Under the pieces are notes generated by a model that was not told where the DNA came from, did not search any database, and saw nothing but the letters and a program-made list of their open reading frames with translations. DNA of 64,000 nt from positions 6,005 to 70,004 of the forward strand of contig CAWAPT010000015.1 in the NCBI GenBank assembly GCA_963784005.1, written 5' to 3'. This document shows positions 1,709 to 33,974 of the stretch, piece by piece. The position numbers were made by a program, and so were the translations under genes. This DNA is from an uncultured Alphaproteobacteria bacterium (GTDB taxonomy: Bacteria > Pseudomonadota > Alphaproteobacteria > Rhizobiales > Xanthobacteraceae). Within the stretch, counting starts at the first letter, position 1, and each line of letters starts with the position of its first letter.

Positions 1709-2638
1709 ATGCGTATCGTCGTTCACGGCCAACAGGCGTTCGGCAAGGCGGTGTTGGAAGCGCTGATCAAGCGCGGCGAGAACGTCGTCGCCGTTTATGT
1801 CGCGCCGGAGAAACCCGGCGCCAAGGCCGACCCGCTGAAGGAAGCGGCGCTTGCCGCCAAGCTTCCGGTCTATCAGCCCGACTCCTACAAGAAGCCCGAA
1901 GTGCTGGAAGAATTCAAAGCGCTCAAGCCGGACCTTCAGGTGATGGCGTTCGTTACCCTGTTCGTTCCGGAAGAATTCCTCAATCTGCCGACCCACGGCT
2001 CGATCCAATATCACCCGTCGCTGCTGCCGGCCTATCGCGGCGCCAGCGCCATCAATTGGCCGATCATCAAGGGCGAAACGGAAACCGGTCTTTCGATCTT
2101 CTGGCCCGACAACGGGCTCGATACCGGCGACGTGCTGCTGCAGAAGAAAACGCCGATCGGCCCCAACGACACGCTCGGCACGGTTTATTTCGACCGGCTG
2201 TTTCCGATGGGCGTCGACGCCATGCTGGAATCGGTCGATCTGGTGAAGGCCGGCAAGGCGCCGCGCGTCAAGCAGGACGAAGCGCAAGCCACTTACGAAG
2301 GGCGCTGCGGCGCCGACAATGCCAAGATCGACTGGGGCAAGCCCTGGGAGCAGATCGACCGGCTCATCCGCGGCTGCAACCCGGCGCCGGGCGCCTGGAC
2401 CACGCTCGACGGTAAGCAACTGAAGATTTTCGACGCCAAGCCGCTGCCGGCCAAGGATCCGAAGGGAATCGCCGGCAAGCTTGGCGAGATCGTCGCGGTG
2501 GAAGCCGACGGCTTCACCGTGGTCTGCGCCGATGGGCGCTTCAAAGTTTCGCGTGTGCAGCCCGCCGACGGCAAAAAGATCGAAGCCGGCGAATGGGCCA
2601 AATCCGCCAATCTCGCCGTCAAGTCGAGGTTTGCATGA
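1709..2638 (+). CDS. formyltransferase-family protein resembling the N-terminal hydrolase domain of 10-formyl-THF dehydrogenase
   Basis: The track ORF 1580-2638 reads through repeat A, so the internal ATG 1709 (MRIVVHGQQAFG) is the likely start. Motifs IQYHPSLLPAYRGASAINWPII and LSIFWPDNGLDTGDVLLQ match the Fmt/FDH-N formyl-transfer site (His-x-SLLP-x-x-RG, Asp). Confidence 0.8.
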   Translation: MRIVVHGQQAFGKAVLEALIKRGENVVAVYVAPEKPGAKADPLKEAALAAKLPVYQPDSYKKPEVLEEFKALKPDLQVMAFVTLFVPEEFLNLPTHGSIQYHPSLLPAYRGASAINWPIIKGETETGLSIFWPDNGLDTGDVLLQKKTPIGPNDTLGTVYFDRLFPMGVDAMLESVDLVKAGKAPRVKQDEAQATYEGRCGADNAKIDWGKPWEQIDRLIRGCNPAPGAWTTLDGKQLKIFDAKPLPAKDPKGIAGKLGEIVAVEADGFTVVCADGRFKVSRVQPADGKKIEAGEWAKSANLAVKSRFA

Positions 2639-2665
2639 TCTTTTTTCACTTAGCTCTACGCGCGC

Positions 2666-2768
2666 CGTCATTCCGGGGCGACGCGAAGCGTCGAGCCCGG
2701 AATCCATACTCCGCAGCAGGGATTATGGATTCCGGGCCCGCGAACTTCGCTCGCGTCCCGAAATGACG
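2666..2768. repeat. family B hairpin repeats, two units in inverted orientation with only ~8 bp between them ('empty' pair)
   Basis: Unit 1 is CGTCATTCCGGGGCGACGCGAAGCGTCGAGCCCGGAATCCATACTCC. Unit 2 is GGGATTATGGATTCCGGGCCCGCGAACTTCGCTCGCGTCCCGAAATGACG. The same units flank the GIY-YIG ORF at 30551-30954. Confidence 0.85.
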
Positions 2769-2820
2769 AAATCGGAATGACCGGGATTTCTTCACTCCAA
2801 CTTTTCACGGATCTCACACA

Positions 2821-4518
2821 ATGCCCGCCTCACAGCATCAATCGCCGAAATCCGACATTGAAATCTCGCAAGCTGCCAAGAAGCGCCTGATCGTCGACGT
2901 TGCCAAGGAAAGGCTCGGCATCGGCCCGGAAAACCTCGAGCCCTATGGCCATTACAAGGCCAAGATATCGATGGACTACATCAAGTCGCTACAAAGCAAG
3001 CCGAACGGAAAATTGATACTCGTTTCCGCGATCACGCCGACGCCGGCAGGTGAAGGCAAGACCACCACGACAGTCGGCCTGACCGACGCGCTCAATTACA
3101 TCGGCAAGAAGGCGATGCTGTGCCTGCGCGAGCCGTCGCTCGGACCGTCATTCGGCGTCAAGGGCGGCGCCGCCGGCGGCGGCTATGCCCAGGTCGTGCC
3201 GATGGAGGACATCAATCTCCACTTCACCGGCGACTTCCACGCCATCACTTCGGCCAACAACTTGCTCGCCGCGCTCCTCGACAATCACATCTATTGGGGC
3301 AATGCGCTCGGCATCGACGAACGCCGCGTCGCCTGGCGCCGCGTGCTTGATATGAACGATCGCGCGCTACGCTCGGTGGTCTCCTCGCTCGGCGGCGTGG
3401 CCAACGGCTTTCCCCGCGAGGACGGTTTCGACATCACCGTTGCCTCGGAAGTGATGGCGATTTTCTGTCTCGCCCGCGATCTCGAAGACCTCAAGAAGCG
3501 GCTTGGCAACATCGTCGTCGCCTATACGCGCGACCGTAAGCCGGTGCGCGCCAGCGAACTGAAGGCCAATGGCGCCATGACCGTGCTGCTCAAGGAGGCG
3601 CTGGCGCCGAACCTGGTGCAGACGCTCGAAGGCACGCCGGCCTTTATTCACGGCGGGCCGTTCGCCAATATCGCCCATGGCTGCAATTCCGTATTGGCGA
3701 CGACCACCGCGCTCAAACTCGCCGATTACGTCGTCACCGAAGCCGGCTTCGGCGCCGATCTCGGCGGCGAGAAGTTCATGGACATCAAGTGCCGCAAGGC
3801 CGGCATCGAGCCGTCTTGCGCGGTGCTGGTCGCCACCATCCGTGCGCTCAAAATGCATGGCGGCGTCAAGAAAGAAGACCTCAAGACGGAAAACCTGAAA
3901 GCGCTCGAAGCCGGCATGAGCAATCTCAAGCGTCATGTCGAGAACGTGCAGAAATTCGGCATCGTTCCGATCATCTCGATCAACCGCTTCTCCGCCGACA
4001 GCGAAGCCGAGATCAAGCTGGTCGAGGACACCTGCAAATCGCTCGGCGTCGAAGCCTTCATGGCCGATCATTGGGCCATGGGCGGCGAGGGCGCGGCCAA
4101 TGTAGCGAAGGCCGTCGTCAAGGTGGCCGAGAGTGGCAAGAGCAAGCTGAAATTCCTATATCCTGACGACATGCCGCTTCTTGAGAAGATCCGCACCATC
4201 GCCAAGGAGATTTATCGCGCCAAGGATATTTCCGCCGACAAATCGGTCCGCGACCAGCTCGCGAATTTCGAATCGATGGGCTACGGCAAATTCCCTATTT
4301 GCGTCGCAAAGACGCAATACAGCTTCTCGACCAATGCCGACGCCAAGGGCGCGCCGAGCGATCACATCGTCAATGTGCGCGAGGTGCGGCTGTCGGCGGG
4401 CGCGGAGTTTGTGGTCGCGATCTGCGGCGAGGTCATGACCATGCCCGGCCTGCCCCGGGTTCCGGCAGCCGACGTGATCGATGTCGGCGCCGACGGCAAG
4501 ATCGTCGGACTATTTTAA
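2821..4518 (+). CDS. fhs: formate--tetrahydrofolate ligase
   Basis: 565 aa, with the P-loop [15 protein letters not shown], plus [19 protein letters not shown] and [18 protein letters not shown]. Full-length collinear with FTHFS. Confidence 0.95.
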
Positions 4519-24760: not shown

Positions 24761-24877
24761 CTCCCTCCCCCTGAAAGGGGGAGGGCGGGGGGTCACGGCC
24801 TCGAAGCTTGCACAGGCGTCGAAGACGAACCCCCGCCGGCTTCGCTTCGCTCGCCACCTCCCCCTTTCAGGGGGAGG
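24761..24877. repeat. family A repeat, inverted relative to the copy at 1559-1680, inside the znuC-znuB intergenic gap
   Basis: CTCCCTCCCCCTGAAAGGGGGAGGG ... CCTCCCCCTTTCAGGGGGAGG. Its reverse complement aligns along the whole length with 1559-1680. Confidence 0.85.
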
Positions 24878-29454: not shown

Positions 29455-30177
29455 CTAAGACGCCTGACGGAGCGCCGACCGCGCGCCGCGAAGCCCTTTG
29501 AGGATCGCCTTCGCGCGCGCCATCGAGAAATCGCGTGAGCGCTTGTCGAACGCCTCACCGGCGCCGGGCATCATGTAGCCGTGAAGGACGCCCGGGAAAA
29601 TATGCAGATCGAGATTCTTGATGCGCGGCGCGATGGCGCGATAGGCATCCAGCACCTCCGCCGGCGCCGCGTGATCGCGGTCGCCCCACATGATGCATAG
29701 CGGCTCGCGCACGCCCTCGATGTCGCCGATGAAATCGAGCATCTGGGTGCCGTGACAGGAAATGCCCGCGGCATAGCCGAGACGTTTCGGCCCGATAATG
29801 GCGTAAGGGCCGCCGTAACAGAATCCCATCACCGCGGCGCGGCCGTTGAATTGCGGCAGCGTGCGCAGATGGGCCAGTGTGTCGGCGAGATCGGTTTCGC
29901 CAGTCTTGATTCGTTGCAGGCGCGGTTGCGAACGTTCCTTGGTGCGCCGGTCGTCGCGCGATAGCGGCCCCGGGATCGTCCGCCAGAACAGATCGGGTGC
30001 GGCGACGATATAGCCGTCGGCTGCGAATTCGTCGGCGATCGCGCGAATGTCGGCGTCGACGCCATGAACGGCGCTGGCGAGCACTATCGCCGGCACGGCG
30101 GCGTCCGTCTTCGGGATAGCCAGATAGCAATCGAACTCGCCGCCGCTTGAATGGATCTCGACGTTTTTGCCTGACAT
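29455..30177 (-). CDS. dienelactone hydrolase family protein
   Basis: 240 aa alpha/beta hydrolase: DCYLAIP...PAIVLASAVHGV, nucleophile elbow GFCYGG, C-terminal HGY. Confidence 0.85.
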   Translation of the reverse strand: MSGKNVEIHSSGGEFDCYLAIPKTDAAVPAIVLASAVHGVDADIRAIADEFAADGYIVAAPDLFWRTIPGPLSRDDRRTKERSQPRLQRIKTGETDLADTLAHLRTLPQFNGRAAVMGFCYGGPYAIIGPKRLGYAAGISCHGTQMLDFIGDIEGVREPLCIMWGDRDHAAPAEVLDAYRAIAPRIKNLDLHIFPGVLHGYMMPGAGEAFDKRSRDFSMARAKAILKGLRGARSALRQAS

Positions 30178-30207
30178 GAATTCCTCCCTGATTTTCGCCG
30201 TCTATTG

Positions 30208-30552
30208 CTATTCGTGGAAGTCGCCCGATAATAGTTCGATCGGCATGCCGTGCGGGGTTCGCGCGCAAGCGTGCTGCCAAGCGTCACGCGTGCGCGATAG
30301 CGCCTGCGGATCGGTCAAACCCTTTGTGGCGACGATGCGTTCCAGCGTCGCGAGCCAATGGTGATAGTAAGTCTCGCCGGTGTCGGGATCGCCGGCGGCT
30401 TGCGCCTTTTTGATCTCGTCGCCGAGCGTCGCCGCCCATTCTGTCCAGGTGAACAGGCCGCGCTCGTTGAGTTGAAGCGCCAGCGCAAAGGCCTCGGCTT
30501 CCCAGGGCGCGCGGAATATCGGACCGTCTGCGTTGCGGGGGAGCTTAACTCG
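30208..30552 (-). pseudogene. nitrile hydratase accessory (activator) protein, 5' end removed: 114 open codons with no ATG/GTG/TTG start
   Basis: ...LPRNADGPIFRAPWEAEAFALALQLNERGLFTWTEWAATLGDEIKKAQAAGDPDTGETYYHHWLATLERIVATKGL...RTPHGMPIELL matches the NHase accessory-protein family. The frame is closed upstream by a TGA that lies inside the left hairpin repeat (30553-30555). Confidence 0.6.
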
Positions 30553-30954
30553 TCATTCCGGCCGAGCGAGCGAAGCGAGCGAGAGCCGGAATCCATAGTC
30601 ACATGTCCTCATATCAATGTCTCCGAAAGATCGACCCAACCAGGTTTCTTGTTTTCGATAAGCTGAATCTTCCATTCGCGGTTCCATTTCTTTAATTGCT
30701 TTTCACGCGTTATTGCCGACAAGGGGTCATCAAGAATTTCAAAATATACCAGCTTATGAACATTGTAACGTTTGGTGAAGTCTCGAACGATTTTCGATTT
30801 GTGTTGGTGGACGCACTGGATGAGATCATTCGTGACGCCTATGTAGAGCGTGCCGTGTTTGTTATTCGCCAAAATGTAAACGTAGAAATGGTCACTCATC
30901 CGAGAGTTCAGTGATTATGGATTCCGGCTCTCGCTTCGCTCGGCCGGAATGACG
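30551..30954 (-). mobile_element. candidate mobile unit: GIY-YIG ORF bracketed by inverted family B hairpin repeats
   Basis: The left unit (30551-30602) and right unit (30911-30954) are reverse complements of each other apart from two 4-nt GCGA insertions. The AT-rich ORF fills the space between them, with 6 and 11 nt spacers. It sits exactly at the nthB stop / accessory-gene start junction. Confidence 0.55.
30609..30899 (-). CDS. GIY-YIG nuclease family protein (COG2827/UPF0213-like, catalytic domain only)
   Basis: MSDHFYVYILANNKHGTLYIGVTNDLIQCVHQHK...REKQLKKWNREWK carries the GIY/YIG beta-hairpin, a conserved Arg/His region and a Glu. It is visibly AT-rich (roughly 40% GC by eye) in a >60% GC context. 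Confidence 0.85.
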   Translation of the reverse strand: MSDHFYVYILANNKHGTLYIGVTNDLIQCVHQHKSKIVRDFTKRYNVHKLVYFEILDDPLSAITREKQLKKWNREWKIQLIENKKPGWVDLSETLI

Positions 30955-31610
30955 TCAGGCTCCAGATACGGCTCGAACGCTTCGATCGAAACCTTGAGCG
31001 AGGGCTCCGCACCGTCGCCCCATAATTCGCGGCCTTCGAACAGCACCGTGTAGAGCCATTGCGGATTTTCGCCCTGGCCGATCGCGACGGTGTCGGGAAA
31101 GACGTGGCAACCGCGCAGCGCTTCGACCACGCCGACGCGGCCGCGGGCATAGCGCGGCAGGCGCGTATGCGTATCCGGATGGATGTTCTTGGTGCGCACG
31201 CGGTCGCCGGGCTTGAAGCGGGCCGGCGCTTGCGCCGGACGCGCAAACGAGCCGCGCGACAGTGAGTTCGGCACTTCGGCGGCGGTGAGCTTGCGCGCGA
31301 GCGGCTTGCCGGGGCGCAACGCATGGCCGGCATCGATCTCATCGGCGCCGGCAAGCCCAAGCGCCGACCACACGATTTTCCAGGCCCATCGCCCATTTCT
31401 TGTAATAGGAGCTGGTCAGATAAACGTCCGGCGGCAATGGCCTCGATCGCGGCGCGCGCCTCATCGATCGTATAGACGCCGGTGTAGCCCATGGCGCGGT
31501 TGAGCGCGAGCGCAGTGGCCTTCCCACGCCGCATGAAAAACCGGCTCGTCCGGTTCCGGCTCGACTTTGCCGAAGCCGTGCATGCCGCCCATGTCGTGGA
31601 TGCCGTCCAT
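30915..31610 (-). pseudogene. nthB: nitrile hydratase beta subunit, at least 3 frameshifts; C-terminus reads into the right hairpin repeat
   Basis: The pieces [82 protein letters not shown] and ...RFKPGDRVRTKNIHPDTHTRLPRYARGRVGVVEALRGCHVFPDT...EPYLEP lie in different frames. Confidence 0.8.
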
Positions 31611-31624
31611 CACGAAGACCTGCA

Positions 31625-32262
31625 TCACGCGGCTCGGCCGGTTGTTTCGGCAGGCCGGTGCCGATCATGCTGTCGCGCGTGACCAGCGCTGGCGAGTTTT
31701 TCTTCGCTCCAGCCCTCGGTGCCGGCCGGCCGCATCGGCAGCACGATGAAACGCGTCTCGGCGGTCGAATCCCAGACGCGGATGCCGGTGCCCGCCGGCA
31801 GCGTCACGCCGAAATCGGCCAGCACGCCGCGCGGATCGTTGACCGCGCGCGAACGATACGGCGCCGATTTGTACCAGACCGGCGGCAGGCCGAGCACTTC
31901 CCAGGGATAACAGGAGCACAGCGTGCAGACGATCATGTTGTGCTGCTTGCGGCGTATTCTCGACCGCGATCAGATGATCGCCGACGCGGTTGAGCACGCC
32001 GAGCGGCAGCACCGCTTTGCTGCGCGTCTTCGATGCAGCGCCTGCTTGAACGCCGGGTCGCTCCAGGCCTTGGCGACGACGCGCGCGCCGATATGCGGGC
32101 CGACTTTGGTTTCATAGGCCTCGATGATGGCGTCGATCGCGGCCGGATCGATATAGCCTTTCTCGGCCAGCACGGTTTCCAGCGCGCGCACGCGCAATTG
32201 CATCTCGGAGAGTTCCGAGCCGTGTCGTGATGGTCGTGATCGTGATCGTGGTCGTGTGCCAT
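31625..32262 (-). pseudogene. nthA: nitrile hydratase alpha subunit (Co-type), at least 4-5 frameshifts
   Basis: Metal site [10 protein letters not shown] (Thr, so cobalt type). The pieces [115 protein letters not shown]...GWSEEKLAS and [13 protein letters not shown] are in alternating frames. Confidence 0.85.
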
Positions 32263-32281
32263 GATCGGCGGATTATAACAC

Positions 32282-32361
32282 CGTCATTGCGAGGAGCGAA
32301 GCGACGAAGCAATCCAGGCTTTGCCGCCCGACTGGATTGCTTCGCTCCGCTCGCAATGACG
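32282..32361. repeat. family C repeat between the nthA start and the UbiD-like stop
   Basis: CGTCATTGCGAGGAGCGAAGCGACGAAGCAATCCAGG...CTGGATTGCTTCGCTCCGCTCGCAATGACG. Same termini and inner palindrome as 4521-4640. Confidence 0.85.
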
Positions 32362-32363
32362 AA

Positions 32364-33858
32364 CTACAGATCGTCCAGCCCATATTCCTTCCAGCGCGCT
32401 TCGACCCGCGCCGCATCGTCGGCGTGCAGGCTTTACCGTCGGCGGGAAGCGCTCGTTGTTCCATTGCGGGCGCCTCGGATTTTTCCAGGAGCGCGTGGCG
32501 TCGATCAGCATGCGGTTCCACAAGCCGGTGCCGAGCTGCGCCACGTCGCGGTCTTCCATCGGCGTCGATGGATCGATCGGCGAGCCGAAAATGCCCGGGA
32601 AAGACCACCACGCCGCCTTCGCCGGCATTGACGCGATGCGCGAAGGCCCATTCGACCTGCTCGTCCTGCGCAGGATCGATGTCCTCTTCCACCACGGTGA
32701 CATGCTTGTAGCGGTATTGCGCGGCGCTGTTGCCCCACAGCGCCGCCGCGATCTGCTTGGGCTGGCCCTGATAATGTTTCTTGATCTGGATGCGGATGTT
32801 GACGCCGTTGGTGATCGGCGGCGCATAGACGTCGAGAATGCCGGGAATGCCGGCGCCGTTCAAAATATTCCAGGCAATGGCGGCGCGCTGCACCGAGGAC
32901 ATCACGCTGTTTTCGCTGTAGGAGCCGGGCAGCGTGCCTTCGAGCGAGCCGACGAAGATCGGATCGCGGCGGTGGGTGATGCAGCTGACTTTCATGGCGG
33001 GCGCGGCGTCGGCAGATCGGACACATAGCCGGTGAATTCGCCGAACGGGCCTTCGCTTCTCATAGGTCGCCGGGTCGTCGCTGATGGTGCCCTCGATGAC
33101 GATCTCGGCGCCGGCCGGCACTGCGAGATCGACCGTCTCGCAGCGCACGAGCTGCGCCGGCTCGCCGCGATAGGCCGCCCATCACGTCCCATTCGCAGAC
33201 GCCGGCCGGCAGCGGCGAGCCGGCGAGGAACGGCATGATCGGATCCCAGCCGATGACGCAGGCGACCGGCATCGGCTTGCCGCGCGCCGCCCATTTGACG
33301 AAATGCGCGCCCCAGTGCTGGCCGCCTTTGATCAGCAGGAACGGCGCGGTGTCCTTCTTGGCCGATCATGCCGCGATAGAGACCGACATTCATCACGCCG
33401 GTATCGGGGTCCTTGGTCACGATGGCGGAGAAGGTGTGGATGTAGCGGCCGCCTTCGAGATAGTGCCATTTCGGCACCGGAAATTCGGTCTGGTCGATGG
33501 CATCGCCGCGCATGATCACGTCTTTCACCGGCCCGCTATCGACGAAGACCGGCGCAATGGTCTCGCGGTTTTTCTTCATCACGTGCTGGACCAGTTCGCG
33601 ATTGGCGGCATCGGGCGGAAAGCCGAGCGCCAGCGCCAGGCGCGAGCGGGCGCCGAGCCCGCTGGCGAAAAGTTTGGTGCAGCGGCCGGCGGCATAGCCC
33701 TTGATATTCTCGAACAGCAGCGCCGGGCCTTTTTTCTCCAGGACGCGCCGCGTGATGGCGCCGATCTCGCGGTCCCAATCGACCTCGGCCTTGATGCGCC
33801 GCAGCTCGCCTTGCTGTTCGAGGCTCGCCATCCATTGCCGCAGGTCCATAAAGCCCAT
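32364..33858 (-). pseudogene. UbiD-family (prenyl-FMN dependent) decarboxylase, at least 6 frameshifts
   Basis: MGFMDLRQWMASLEQQGELRRIKAEVDWDREIGAITRR..., KPMPVACVIGWDPIMPFLAGSPLP, EGPFGEFTGYVSD, MKVSCITHRRDPIFVGSLEG... and a tail ...ARWKEYGLDDL* can be joined only by switching frames repeatedly. Confidence 0.8.
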
Positions 33859-33974
33859 CGCGCGCTCACTCCAAATTTGTCGCTACGTGCCGCGAAGCTT
33901 GATCGCGGCATTAATTCCCGCAATTCTCCGGCTCCGCAATGGGTTATAGCGCGATCGACGGCCGGGGGAAGACC

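Follow-up and report, generated by a model that had tools for sequence, protein, structure and literature searches.

A putative Ssn/SRM module at the nthB/accessory junction of an uncultured Xanthobacteraceae bacterium

Single-domain GIY-YIG proteins of ~94 aa constitute the Ssn family (CDD cd10448), as described by Chenal et al. (Nat Commun 2025; PMC11893778). SsnA of N. meningitidis binds the NTS hairpin (CGTCATTCCCGCGMAVGCGGGAATCYRG) solely as single-stranded DNA (ssDNA) and solely on that strand, and it cleaves a few nucleotides upstream (5') of NTS; double-stranded DNA (dsDNA) is neither bound nor cut (PMC11893778). Cutting is controlled by the GTC preceding the palindrome, binding depends most on the C that follows it, and mutation of Y6, Y17, and E64 identified these residues as catalytic (PMC11893778). 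SRMs, the hairpin motifs of this family, lie on both sides of 42% of Ssn homologues, the NTS-ssnA-NTS architecture has been reported, and the likeness to IS200/IS605 and REP/RAYT was noted, with mobility and domestication raised as a hypothesis (PMC11893778). Here, we describe a 64,000-nt stretch of DNA from an uncultured Xanthobacteraceae bacterium (GCA_963784005.1, contig CAWAPT010000015.1, positions 6,005 to 70,004; the whole stretch is termed the window), in which a 96-aa GIY-YIG gene, referred to as ssn, lies between two inverted hairpin repeats among the nitrile hydratase genes; gene and hairpins together are termed the cassette.

Three further systems invite comparison. REPtrons reportedly consist of RAYT (Y1 HUH transposase) genes flanked by inverted REPs. 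Like a REPtron, the window cassette comprises a single-copy nuclease gene between inverted palindromic repeats that are also found without the gene, its enzyme would recognize the hairpin in ssDNA (by analogy with Ssn), and it looks domesticated and vertically inherited; however, the enzyme is a GIY-YIG hydrolase rather than an HUH Y1 transposase, and the repeat sequence is unrelated. The cassette resembles IS200/IS605 in its small size, in subterminal hairpins of a type recognized in ssDNA, and in a predicted cleavage shortly outside the hairpin, but it lacks a Y1 domain (Pfam), and its hairpins lie on opposite strands instead of the same strand. In homing enzymes such as I-TevI, DNA binding resides in a domain of its own, and the substrates are empty alleles in double-stranded form. 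The GIY-YIG domain and the presence or absence at one conserved site among relatives are shared with I-TevI, whereas Ssn has no separate DNA-binding domain, and its characterized members act only on hairpin-bearing ssDNA. An earlier note, made from the letters of this DNA, had proposed a REPtron-like unit for which no mechanism was described; the tie between the nuclease and its bracketing repeat, and with it the RAYT/REP parallel, stands, but a system of this kind has already been described (PMC11893778).

The ssn gene, its hairpins, and the Ssn family

As far as sequence can tell, the window gene and its hairpins are a new example of the already published Ssn/SRM system. The gene (30609..30899, minus strand) has the same orientation as nthA, nthB, and the nitrile hydratase accessory gene. 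The sole Pfam match of its product is GIY-YIG (PF01541, E=3.5e-14, residues 5-78), and the protein consists of the catalytic domain alone, with no extra DNA-binding domain detected by Pfam. A BLASTP comparison with the 94-aa gonococcal SsnA orthologue (L170:389-673) gave 49 identities over 85 residues (58%, E=1e-35), and the tblastn match to N. gonorrhoeae (E=5e-25) lies well beyond the E < 1e-10 used for homology to Neisseria SsnA (PMC11893778). The orthologue served as the Neisseria reference and was retrieved by tblastn of PLSDB (two chromosomes filed as plasmids); its source, NZ_CP119140.1, is a 2.17-Mb chromosome filed as a plasmid in that database. The gonococcal ORF (open reading frame) carries Y6, Y17, and E64 as published and has NTS copies on its flanks. 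In the window protein, the aligned counterparts of these residues are Y8, Y19, and E66, which are conserved in 8/8 lineages at the nthB/accessory locus.

Both flanks of ssn share one unit, CGTCATTCCGG...CCGGAATCCATA, in opposite orientation. The upstream hairpin (5' of ssn, at the nthB end) occupies 30916..30954 on the minus strand and reads CGTCATTCCGGCCGAGCGAAGCGAGAGCCGGAATCCATA, and the downstream hairpin (3' of ssn, at the accessory end) occupies 30551..30598 on the plus strand and reads CGTCATTCCGG...CCGGAATCCATAG; both were delimited by arms and fold. The inverted-repeat arms at 30551-30569/30936-30954 (19 nt) are 100% complementary and those at 30578-30602/30911-30935 (25 nt) 96%, which, together with the Pfam result, bears out the description of a GIY-YIG-only ORF between inverted repeats given in the earlier note. 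The spacers of 6 and 11 nt reported there are true when counted from the extended arms and amount to 11 and 16 nt from the CCATA ends. In both SRMs, an 8-bp stem (ATTCCGGC/GCCGGAAT) begins straight after CGTC and is followed by C-CATA, with a loop of 14 or 22 nt. The stability of the two hairpins is modest, at -7.8 (upstream) and -8.8 kcal/mol, with z of -1.4 to -1.8. Across the window, CGTCATTCCGG with at most one mismatch occurs 10 times against 2.7 expected, a count attained by none of the shuffles.

The repeat follows the frame CGTC, a palindrome from ATTCC, and then GGAAT-C, inverted on both sides of ssn, and has CGTCATTCC...GGAATCC in common with the published NTS. The likeness to the Ssn/NTS system (PMC11893778) thus comprises a protein of ~95 aa with a GIY-YIG domain only and a conserved catalytic Tyr/Tyr/Glu set, CGTC-ATTCC...GGAAT-C hairpins on both sides, and gene-less copies elsewhere in the sequence. 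The differences are also distinct. In the window hairpin, a CCGG stem encloses a loop of 14-22 nt with GCGAAGC, instead of one of 3-5 nt. Its CGTCA ends point outward, unlike the inward gonococcal arrangement, and outward polarity is the commoner one in the metagenome sample. Also different are the location of the window cassette within an operon and the use of one of its hairpins as coding sequence for the N-terminus of the following protein. The host belongs to a soil Xanthobacteraceae lineage of metagenome-assembled genomes (MAGs) with no known competence, unlike Neisseria.

The association of gene and hairpin extends to homologues in other contexts. A metagenome scan yielded 80 loci homologous to ssn; 66 of them lie outside the nthB context, are 54-64% identical, and could be inspected on both flanks. 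Within 200 nt of the gene, a GTC-hairpin-C motif is present on both sides in 37/66 cases, on one side in 25/66, and on neither in 4/66. The commonest arrangement is a plus-strand motif upstream with a minus-strand motif downstream, 0-30 nt from the ORF, and some of these contigs (among L101-L169) carry arrays of same-orientation hairpins beside the gene. The repeat is indeed commoner beside ssn homologues than elsewhere in the same contigs: its density is raised ~10-fold within 200 nt of them, a zone that makes up 13% of the sequence and holds 61% of the matches. At five loci, the motif is identical to the NTS consensus as published.

The window ORF and its identical copy P0001 correspond to no recorded gene by exact-protein look-up, and the cluster look-up returned neither a name nor an accession. 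The protein matched no NCBIfam family, the nearest hit of a PDB sequence search was a UPF0213 protein at E=0.02, and no Rfam family was found in 30100-31400. The Pfam match and the alignment with SsnA settle the fold of the protein. As no promoter or terminator is predicted on the coding strand of the cassette region, ssn is probably co-transcribed with the nitrile hydratase genes. An AT-rich unit had been pointed out previously, and the GC content is 0.40-0.42 within the cassette and 0.61-0.72 outside (ssn ORF 42%, context ~65%), with GC at third codon positions of 0.54-0.65 for ssn versus 0.73-0.86 for nthB. Low GC was considered as a mark of recent acquisition and rejected, since ssn homologues are GC-poorer than their flanks at 54/54 other-context loci (median difference -0.11; L101-L169) and the synonymous sites of ssn are saturated at this locus; it is therefore a family trait rather than a sign of recent arrival.

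The repeat also occurs in pairs without a gene. Between the formyltransferase gene and fhs, a tail-to-tail SRM pair (2666-2708, plus strand; 2724-2768, minus strand) is separated by a 15-nt spacer and has the same CGTCATTCCGG/CCGGAATCCATA termini and outward CGTCA polarity as the ssn cassette, which agrees with the earlier description of two units with nothing between them at this site; its stems are longer and stronger (-15.8 and -11 kcal/mol) than those flanking ssn. The corresponding spacer (window 2638-2821) is empty in L172 (1443-1501) and L173 (1445-1501), where it measures 55-57 nt, and contains a different SRM-like pair, CGTCATGGCCGGGC...GCCCGGCCATCCACG, in L171 (1380-1501) and L174 (1354-1501). 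This last repeat is common in Bradyrhizobiaceae genomes, and such Bradyrhizobiaceae-type repeats of relatives, with the frame CGTCAT...ATCCA, perhaps belong to the Ssn type as well. The window contains yet another pair of SRM-like units in tail-to-tail arrangement, the third, CGTCATTGCGAG...GCAATCCAG (32283-32362), with weak stems of 5 bp and a spacer of 14 nt. Its position between nthA and the UbiD-like gene means that nthA-nthB is bracketed by SRM units; the pair is present in L012 and absent in the sister L001, in which the spacer is 18 nt. Gene-less pairs thus show insertion polymorphism at two other intergenic sites. In the 64 kb of the source genome that these counts cover, the unit flanking ssn recurs as a single additional pair, and a related unit forms another. 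Another palindromic repeat family, CCTCCCCCTGAAAGGGGGAGG, forms two inverted pairs 72-76 nt apart at 1560-1677 and 24764-24877.

Hairpins as coding sequence and the junction in relatives

The minus strand of 29455-33900 encodes, in order, a UbiD-like protein, NthA, NthB, the 96-aa protein, the nitrile hydratase accessory protein, and a dienelactone hydrolase. The nthB C-terminal part (30915..31373, minus strand; Pfam NHase_beta_C, E=2e-35) has its tail encoded by the SRM (DVIPAERSESRNP). As the earlier note had recognized, the NthB ORF runs into the upstream SRM (...EPYLEPDVIPAERSESRNP), which contributes the last 13 codons and the stop in the window; the read-through is considered real because L020 and L046 show it as well, which makes three lineages with the window.

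The downstream hairpin is evidently exapted as the beginning of the accessory gene, to which it contributes the start codon and the first 15 codons. Its complement holds an ATG (30596-30594, minus strand) that is the accessory start in filled relatives, and in every one of them an uninterrupted accessory ORF proceeds from this SRM ATG (TATGGATTCCGG -> MDSGS...), with an SRM-encoded N-terminus of the form MDSGS(R/H)SLRS(L/F)GRNDELS-IPRN. The accessory start of filled relatives is thus intact, yet it is supplied by the repeat itself. In the window, the accessory core (30208..30552, minus strand; delimited by translation, 82% identity to the L001 accessory protein) is in a frame that has no start and is closed by a TGA in the downstream repeat. 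These two features, noted previously, are accurate; they stem from a single A that, compared with L019, is missing after AGTTAAGC (~30543), which puts the core out of frame with its SRM-encoded start. Restoring this A in silico yields an accessory protein of 129 aa that begins at the ATG at 30596. The missing start is therefore a single-base defect and not part of the insertion design. Separating the ssn stop from the downstream SRM is a spacer (30599..30608, minus strand) in which a GAGGA motif resembling a Shine–Dalgarno sequence overlaps the ssn stop 9 nt before the SRM ATG, and an (A)GGA ~9 nt before this ATG is kept in 7/9 aligned lineages, which suggests that ssn is translationally coupled to the accessory gene.

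Presence and absence of the cassette at the junction were surveyed with NthB in species-representative genomes, which gave 80 nitrile hydratase loci, almost all from Xanthobacteraceae/Alphaproteobacteria MAGs. Both filled and empty sites were found, eight filled lineages in all, along with decay intermediates, footprints, and many ancestral empty alleles. In the ancestral empty allele (a), which also occurs in distant outgroups, the stop of nthB and the start of the accessory gene overlap (ATGA), and the accessory N-terminus resembles MSxDAAALRATQSVQS-IPRN. The filled state (b) comprises the window, L001-L009, L019, L020, L034, L041 (ssn frameshifted), L043, and L046; by exact-protein look-up, the 83%-identical homologue P0003 has the same gene order in soil metagenomes. 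An internally deleted form (c), L032, retains both SRMs with 98 nt between them, and in the partial remnants (d), L026 and L070, what is left is the downstream SRM together with the 3' end of ssn. In-frame footprints (e) consist of the outer arm of the downstream SRM fused to the first ancestral accessory codons (AASLRSFGRNDDLN-IPRN); they are clear in L012, L017, and L024, more diverged in L033 and L036, and looser in L039, L042, and L037. The L012 footprint is not a chance resemblance, since 24/25 nt are identical to L001. Solo hairpin-derived N-termini (f) occur in L055, L060, L072, and L062. In L001, an older SRM footprint follows downstream of a complete cassette, and L041 and L043 carry a degenerate hairpin left of the cassette. 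The outgroups L068 (3151-3411) and L088 (3154-3392) have unrelated REP-like GC-rich hairpins filling the nthB-accessory spacer, and the junction therefore tolerates repeat insertions generally.

The earlier note had also remarked that ssn is intact among frameshifted neighbors. The frameshifts exist but are confined to 31365-33361, where, relative to L001, the window has 13 single-base insertions (mostly C/G), one 14-nt insertion, and 0 single-base deletions; the nthB N-terminal half, nthA, and the UbiD-like gene are affected, and the dienelactone hydrolase gene, the accessory core, and an upstream 471-aa membrane-transporter-like ORF are intact. This local cluster of insertions looks more like an assembly problem than gene decay. 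At the rate of the cluster, a 291-nt gene is estimated to escape ~15% of the time. An intact ssn as a sign of selection was accordingly set aside, and it carries little weight because the frameshifts form a local upstream cluster.

Residence, loss, and spread of the cassette

Across the eight lineages, ssn shows dN (nonsynonymous divergence) of 0.10-0.18 and dS (synonymous divergence) of at least 1.4 or saturated, i.e., dN/dS <0.1. The upstream SRM, non-coding in most lineages, is invariant over 38 nt in 8/9 of them despite the saturated synonymous sites of ssn. Judging from these patterns, ssn and the upstream hairpin are held by strong purifying selection. Every one of the 12 metagenome homologues with at least 69% identity lies at the nthB/accessory junction, and ssn distances between lineages rise and fall with those of nthB and the accessory gene, a pattern to which vertical descent and exchange among equally distant lineages would both give rise. 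The filled state is scattered over the nthAB tree; within a group differing by at most 10%, the filled L019, L092, L093, and L098 are interleaved with the ancestral empty L016 and L023. Flanks are mosaic in that the nearest neighbors of nthB differ from those of the accessory gene. Filled L019 and empty L016/L023 are 93-95% identical right to the junction, and L019 lacks the 39-nt accessory N-terminus remnant that would remain had the cassette freshly inserted into a site like that of L016. These data are better explained by a presence/absence polymorphism that segregates and is reshuffled through homologous recombination than by recent transposition; no evidence of transposition was found.

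We propose the following account. By extension from the Neisseria and Wolbachia enzymes, Ssn would bind the SRM only in ssDNA and only on the strand that reads CGTC-stem...stem-C, and it would cut a few nucleotides 5' of CGTC. With the CGTCA ends facing outward, each strand is predicted to have a single cut site just beyond the cassette, one at the nthB stop and the other roughly three codons ahead of the conserved accessory-protein IPRN. As the comparison of relatives shows, the cassette entered the nthB/accessory junction of a Xanthobacteraceae lineage long ago in the sense orientation; ssn and the upstream hairpin have been retained since then, the downstream hairpin has become the accessory start, and deletion has removed the cassette on repeated occasions. 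Close relatives still exchange filled and ancestral empty alleles, most simply by homologous recombination. In the cell, Ssn probably cuts SRM-tagged ssDNA that forms when DNA is taken up, transferred by conjugation, or replicated, and it would thereby modulate the recombination of segments flanked by SRMs, as in Neisseria; the gene-less pairs may be substrates or relics of the Ssn system. Taken as a whole, i.e., with the biochemistry, the history of the locus, its loss and spread, and the cellular role, this account of an Ssn/SRM module is probably correct.

Several points weigh against it. Neither the exact NTS consensus nor the degenerate SRM pattern HGTCWYN(0-2)YYVSBRHN(0-5)WNVSBRGN(0-2)RNCYNB (PMC11893778) is matched by the window units; the pattern is present at 57/68 other-context loci and at 0/4 units in the window, since their loops of 14-22 nt exceed the 5 nt allowed. 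As the pattern is a search heuristic, the window unit is taken as a variant hairpin rather than as failed membership, but with the long loop and modest stability recognition could differ, and binding and cleavage of a long-loop SRM by the 96-aa protein are predicted by analogy. At gonococcal ssnA (L170:250-790), the NTS copies point inward, minus upstream and plus downstream, which is opposite to the window cassette, and the functional geometry is thus not universal. SRM abundance and ssn copy number were judged from the 64 kb of source genome covered here, the recombination-control role is extrapolated from one naturally competent genus, and SRM invariance could result from gene conversion among copies rather than from selection for binding. 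Furthermore, the distance from the downstream SRM to IPRN is 9, 39, 57, 60, or 69 nt across lineages (at least four to five configurations), and a more distant lineage, L102, has tandem cassettes 59 nt apart (384-1071), one full-length with a late frameshift and one with an internal deletion of ssn, with an intact ancestral accessory start downstream. These configurations and the L102 tandem are explained by repeated insertion at least as well as by one old insertion followed by rearrangement.

The latter observations also count towards the likeliest of the alternatives, an autonomous mobile element analogous to REPtrons and IS200/IS605, in which Ssn would cut the outer SRM edges, replication or repair would move SRM-ssn-SRM, and the gene-less pairs would resemble miniature inverted-repeat transposable elements. 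The inverted terminal hairpins with predicted cut sites just outside the unit, the coexistence of filled and empty sites, the internal-deletion intermediate of L032, the polymorphic gene-less pairs at two other sites with two SRM subfamilies in one formyltransferase-fhs spacer, and the low GC of ssn at 54/54 loci are in keeping with it. At least four junction configurations, the L102 tandem of a full and an internally deleted copy, the double arrangement of L001, and the degenerate hairpin of L041/L043 point to insertion activity at some time. However, this ssn lineage was not found away from the junction in the sampled metagenome homologues, no lineage pair has an ssn much closer than its flanks, and no target-site duplication was recognizable in junction relatives or in the formyltransferase-fhs spacer. 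The absent target remnant of L019 and the opposite-strand hairpins, unlike the single-strand hairpins of IS200/IS605, add to the difficulty, and the low dN/dS, saturated dS, and long residence are those of a host-retained gene. GIY-YIG enzymes are hydrolytic, and we know of none with strand transfer or a covalent intermediate. We therefore regard an autonomous element as unlikely: mobility of the cassette is plausible historically, but a currently mobile unit is not supported, given that the close homologues of ssn all lie at one junction, their divergence tracks the flanks, and the alleles are mosaic.

Less probable still is a homing-type selfish element for the nthB/accessory junction, whereby an empty allele or an ssDNA intermediate would be cut and repaired from a filled allele. 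Many GIY-YIG enzymes are homing endonucleases, and confinement of the lineage to one junction, filled and empty alleles interleaved in a group of at most 10% divergence, mosaic flanks across the junction, and filled alleles with donor-like junctions but without recipient remnants, as co-conversion would give, are all consistent with homing. Nevertheless, characterized Ssn is inactive on dsDNA and needs an SRM, which the empty alleles of type (a) lack, and the 96-aa protein has no extra DNA-binding domain. Sliding-window identity beside the cassette revealed no clearly divergent co-conversion tract, and plain homologous recombination of a segregating polymorphism gives the same pattern, in which gains look no different from losses combined with recombination. 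Finally, a coincidence of generic REP- or terminator-like repeats with an unrelated small GIY-YIG ORF is so improbable as to be effectively refuted: the unrelated hairpins of L068 and L088 and the other palindromic repeat families in the window speak for it, but the motif is 10-fold denser by ssn homologues over 68 unrelated contigs with consistent polarity, SRMs are invariant while synonymous sites are saturated, the coding strand shows no T-run and no terminator prediction, and specific binding and cleavage of NTS have been published (PMC11893778).

Significance for Ssn elements

The nuclease-hairpin system is already published, and the Ssn/SRM module of the window thus opens no new category. 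Its value lies in one orthologous site at which full, tandem, internally deleted, solo-hairpin, footprint, and empty states are found across dozens of relatives, which constitute a test set for mobility. Whether NTS-ssn-NTS units move, and how they are lost, was left open (PMC11893778), and the junction series bears on both questions. Since long-loop SRMs escape the published pattern, pattern-based surveys undercount such elements. The locus is also an instance of repeat exaptation, in which one hairpin gives the accessory gene its start and 15 codons and the other gives NthB its tail and stop.

It is doubtful, though conceivable, that cassettes and gene-less pairs are genuinely mobile and that the junction has been targeted repeatedly, with at least four independent insertions, a tandem array, and re-insertion by old footprints. 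If so, the junction series would be the first comparative evidence for the mobility of Ssn elements hypothesized previously (PMC11893778), and the element would survive within an operon by means of its terminal hairpin, from which the interrupted gene downstream would obtain its ribosome-binding site and start codon.

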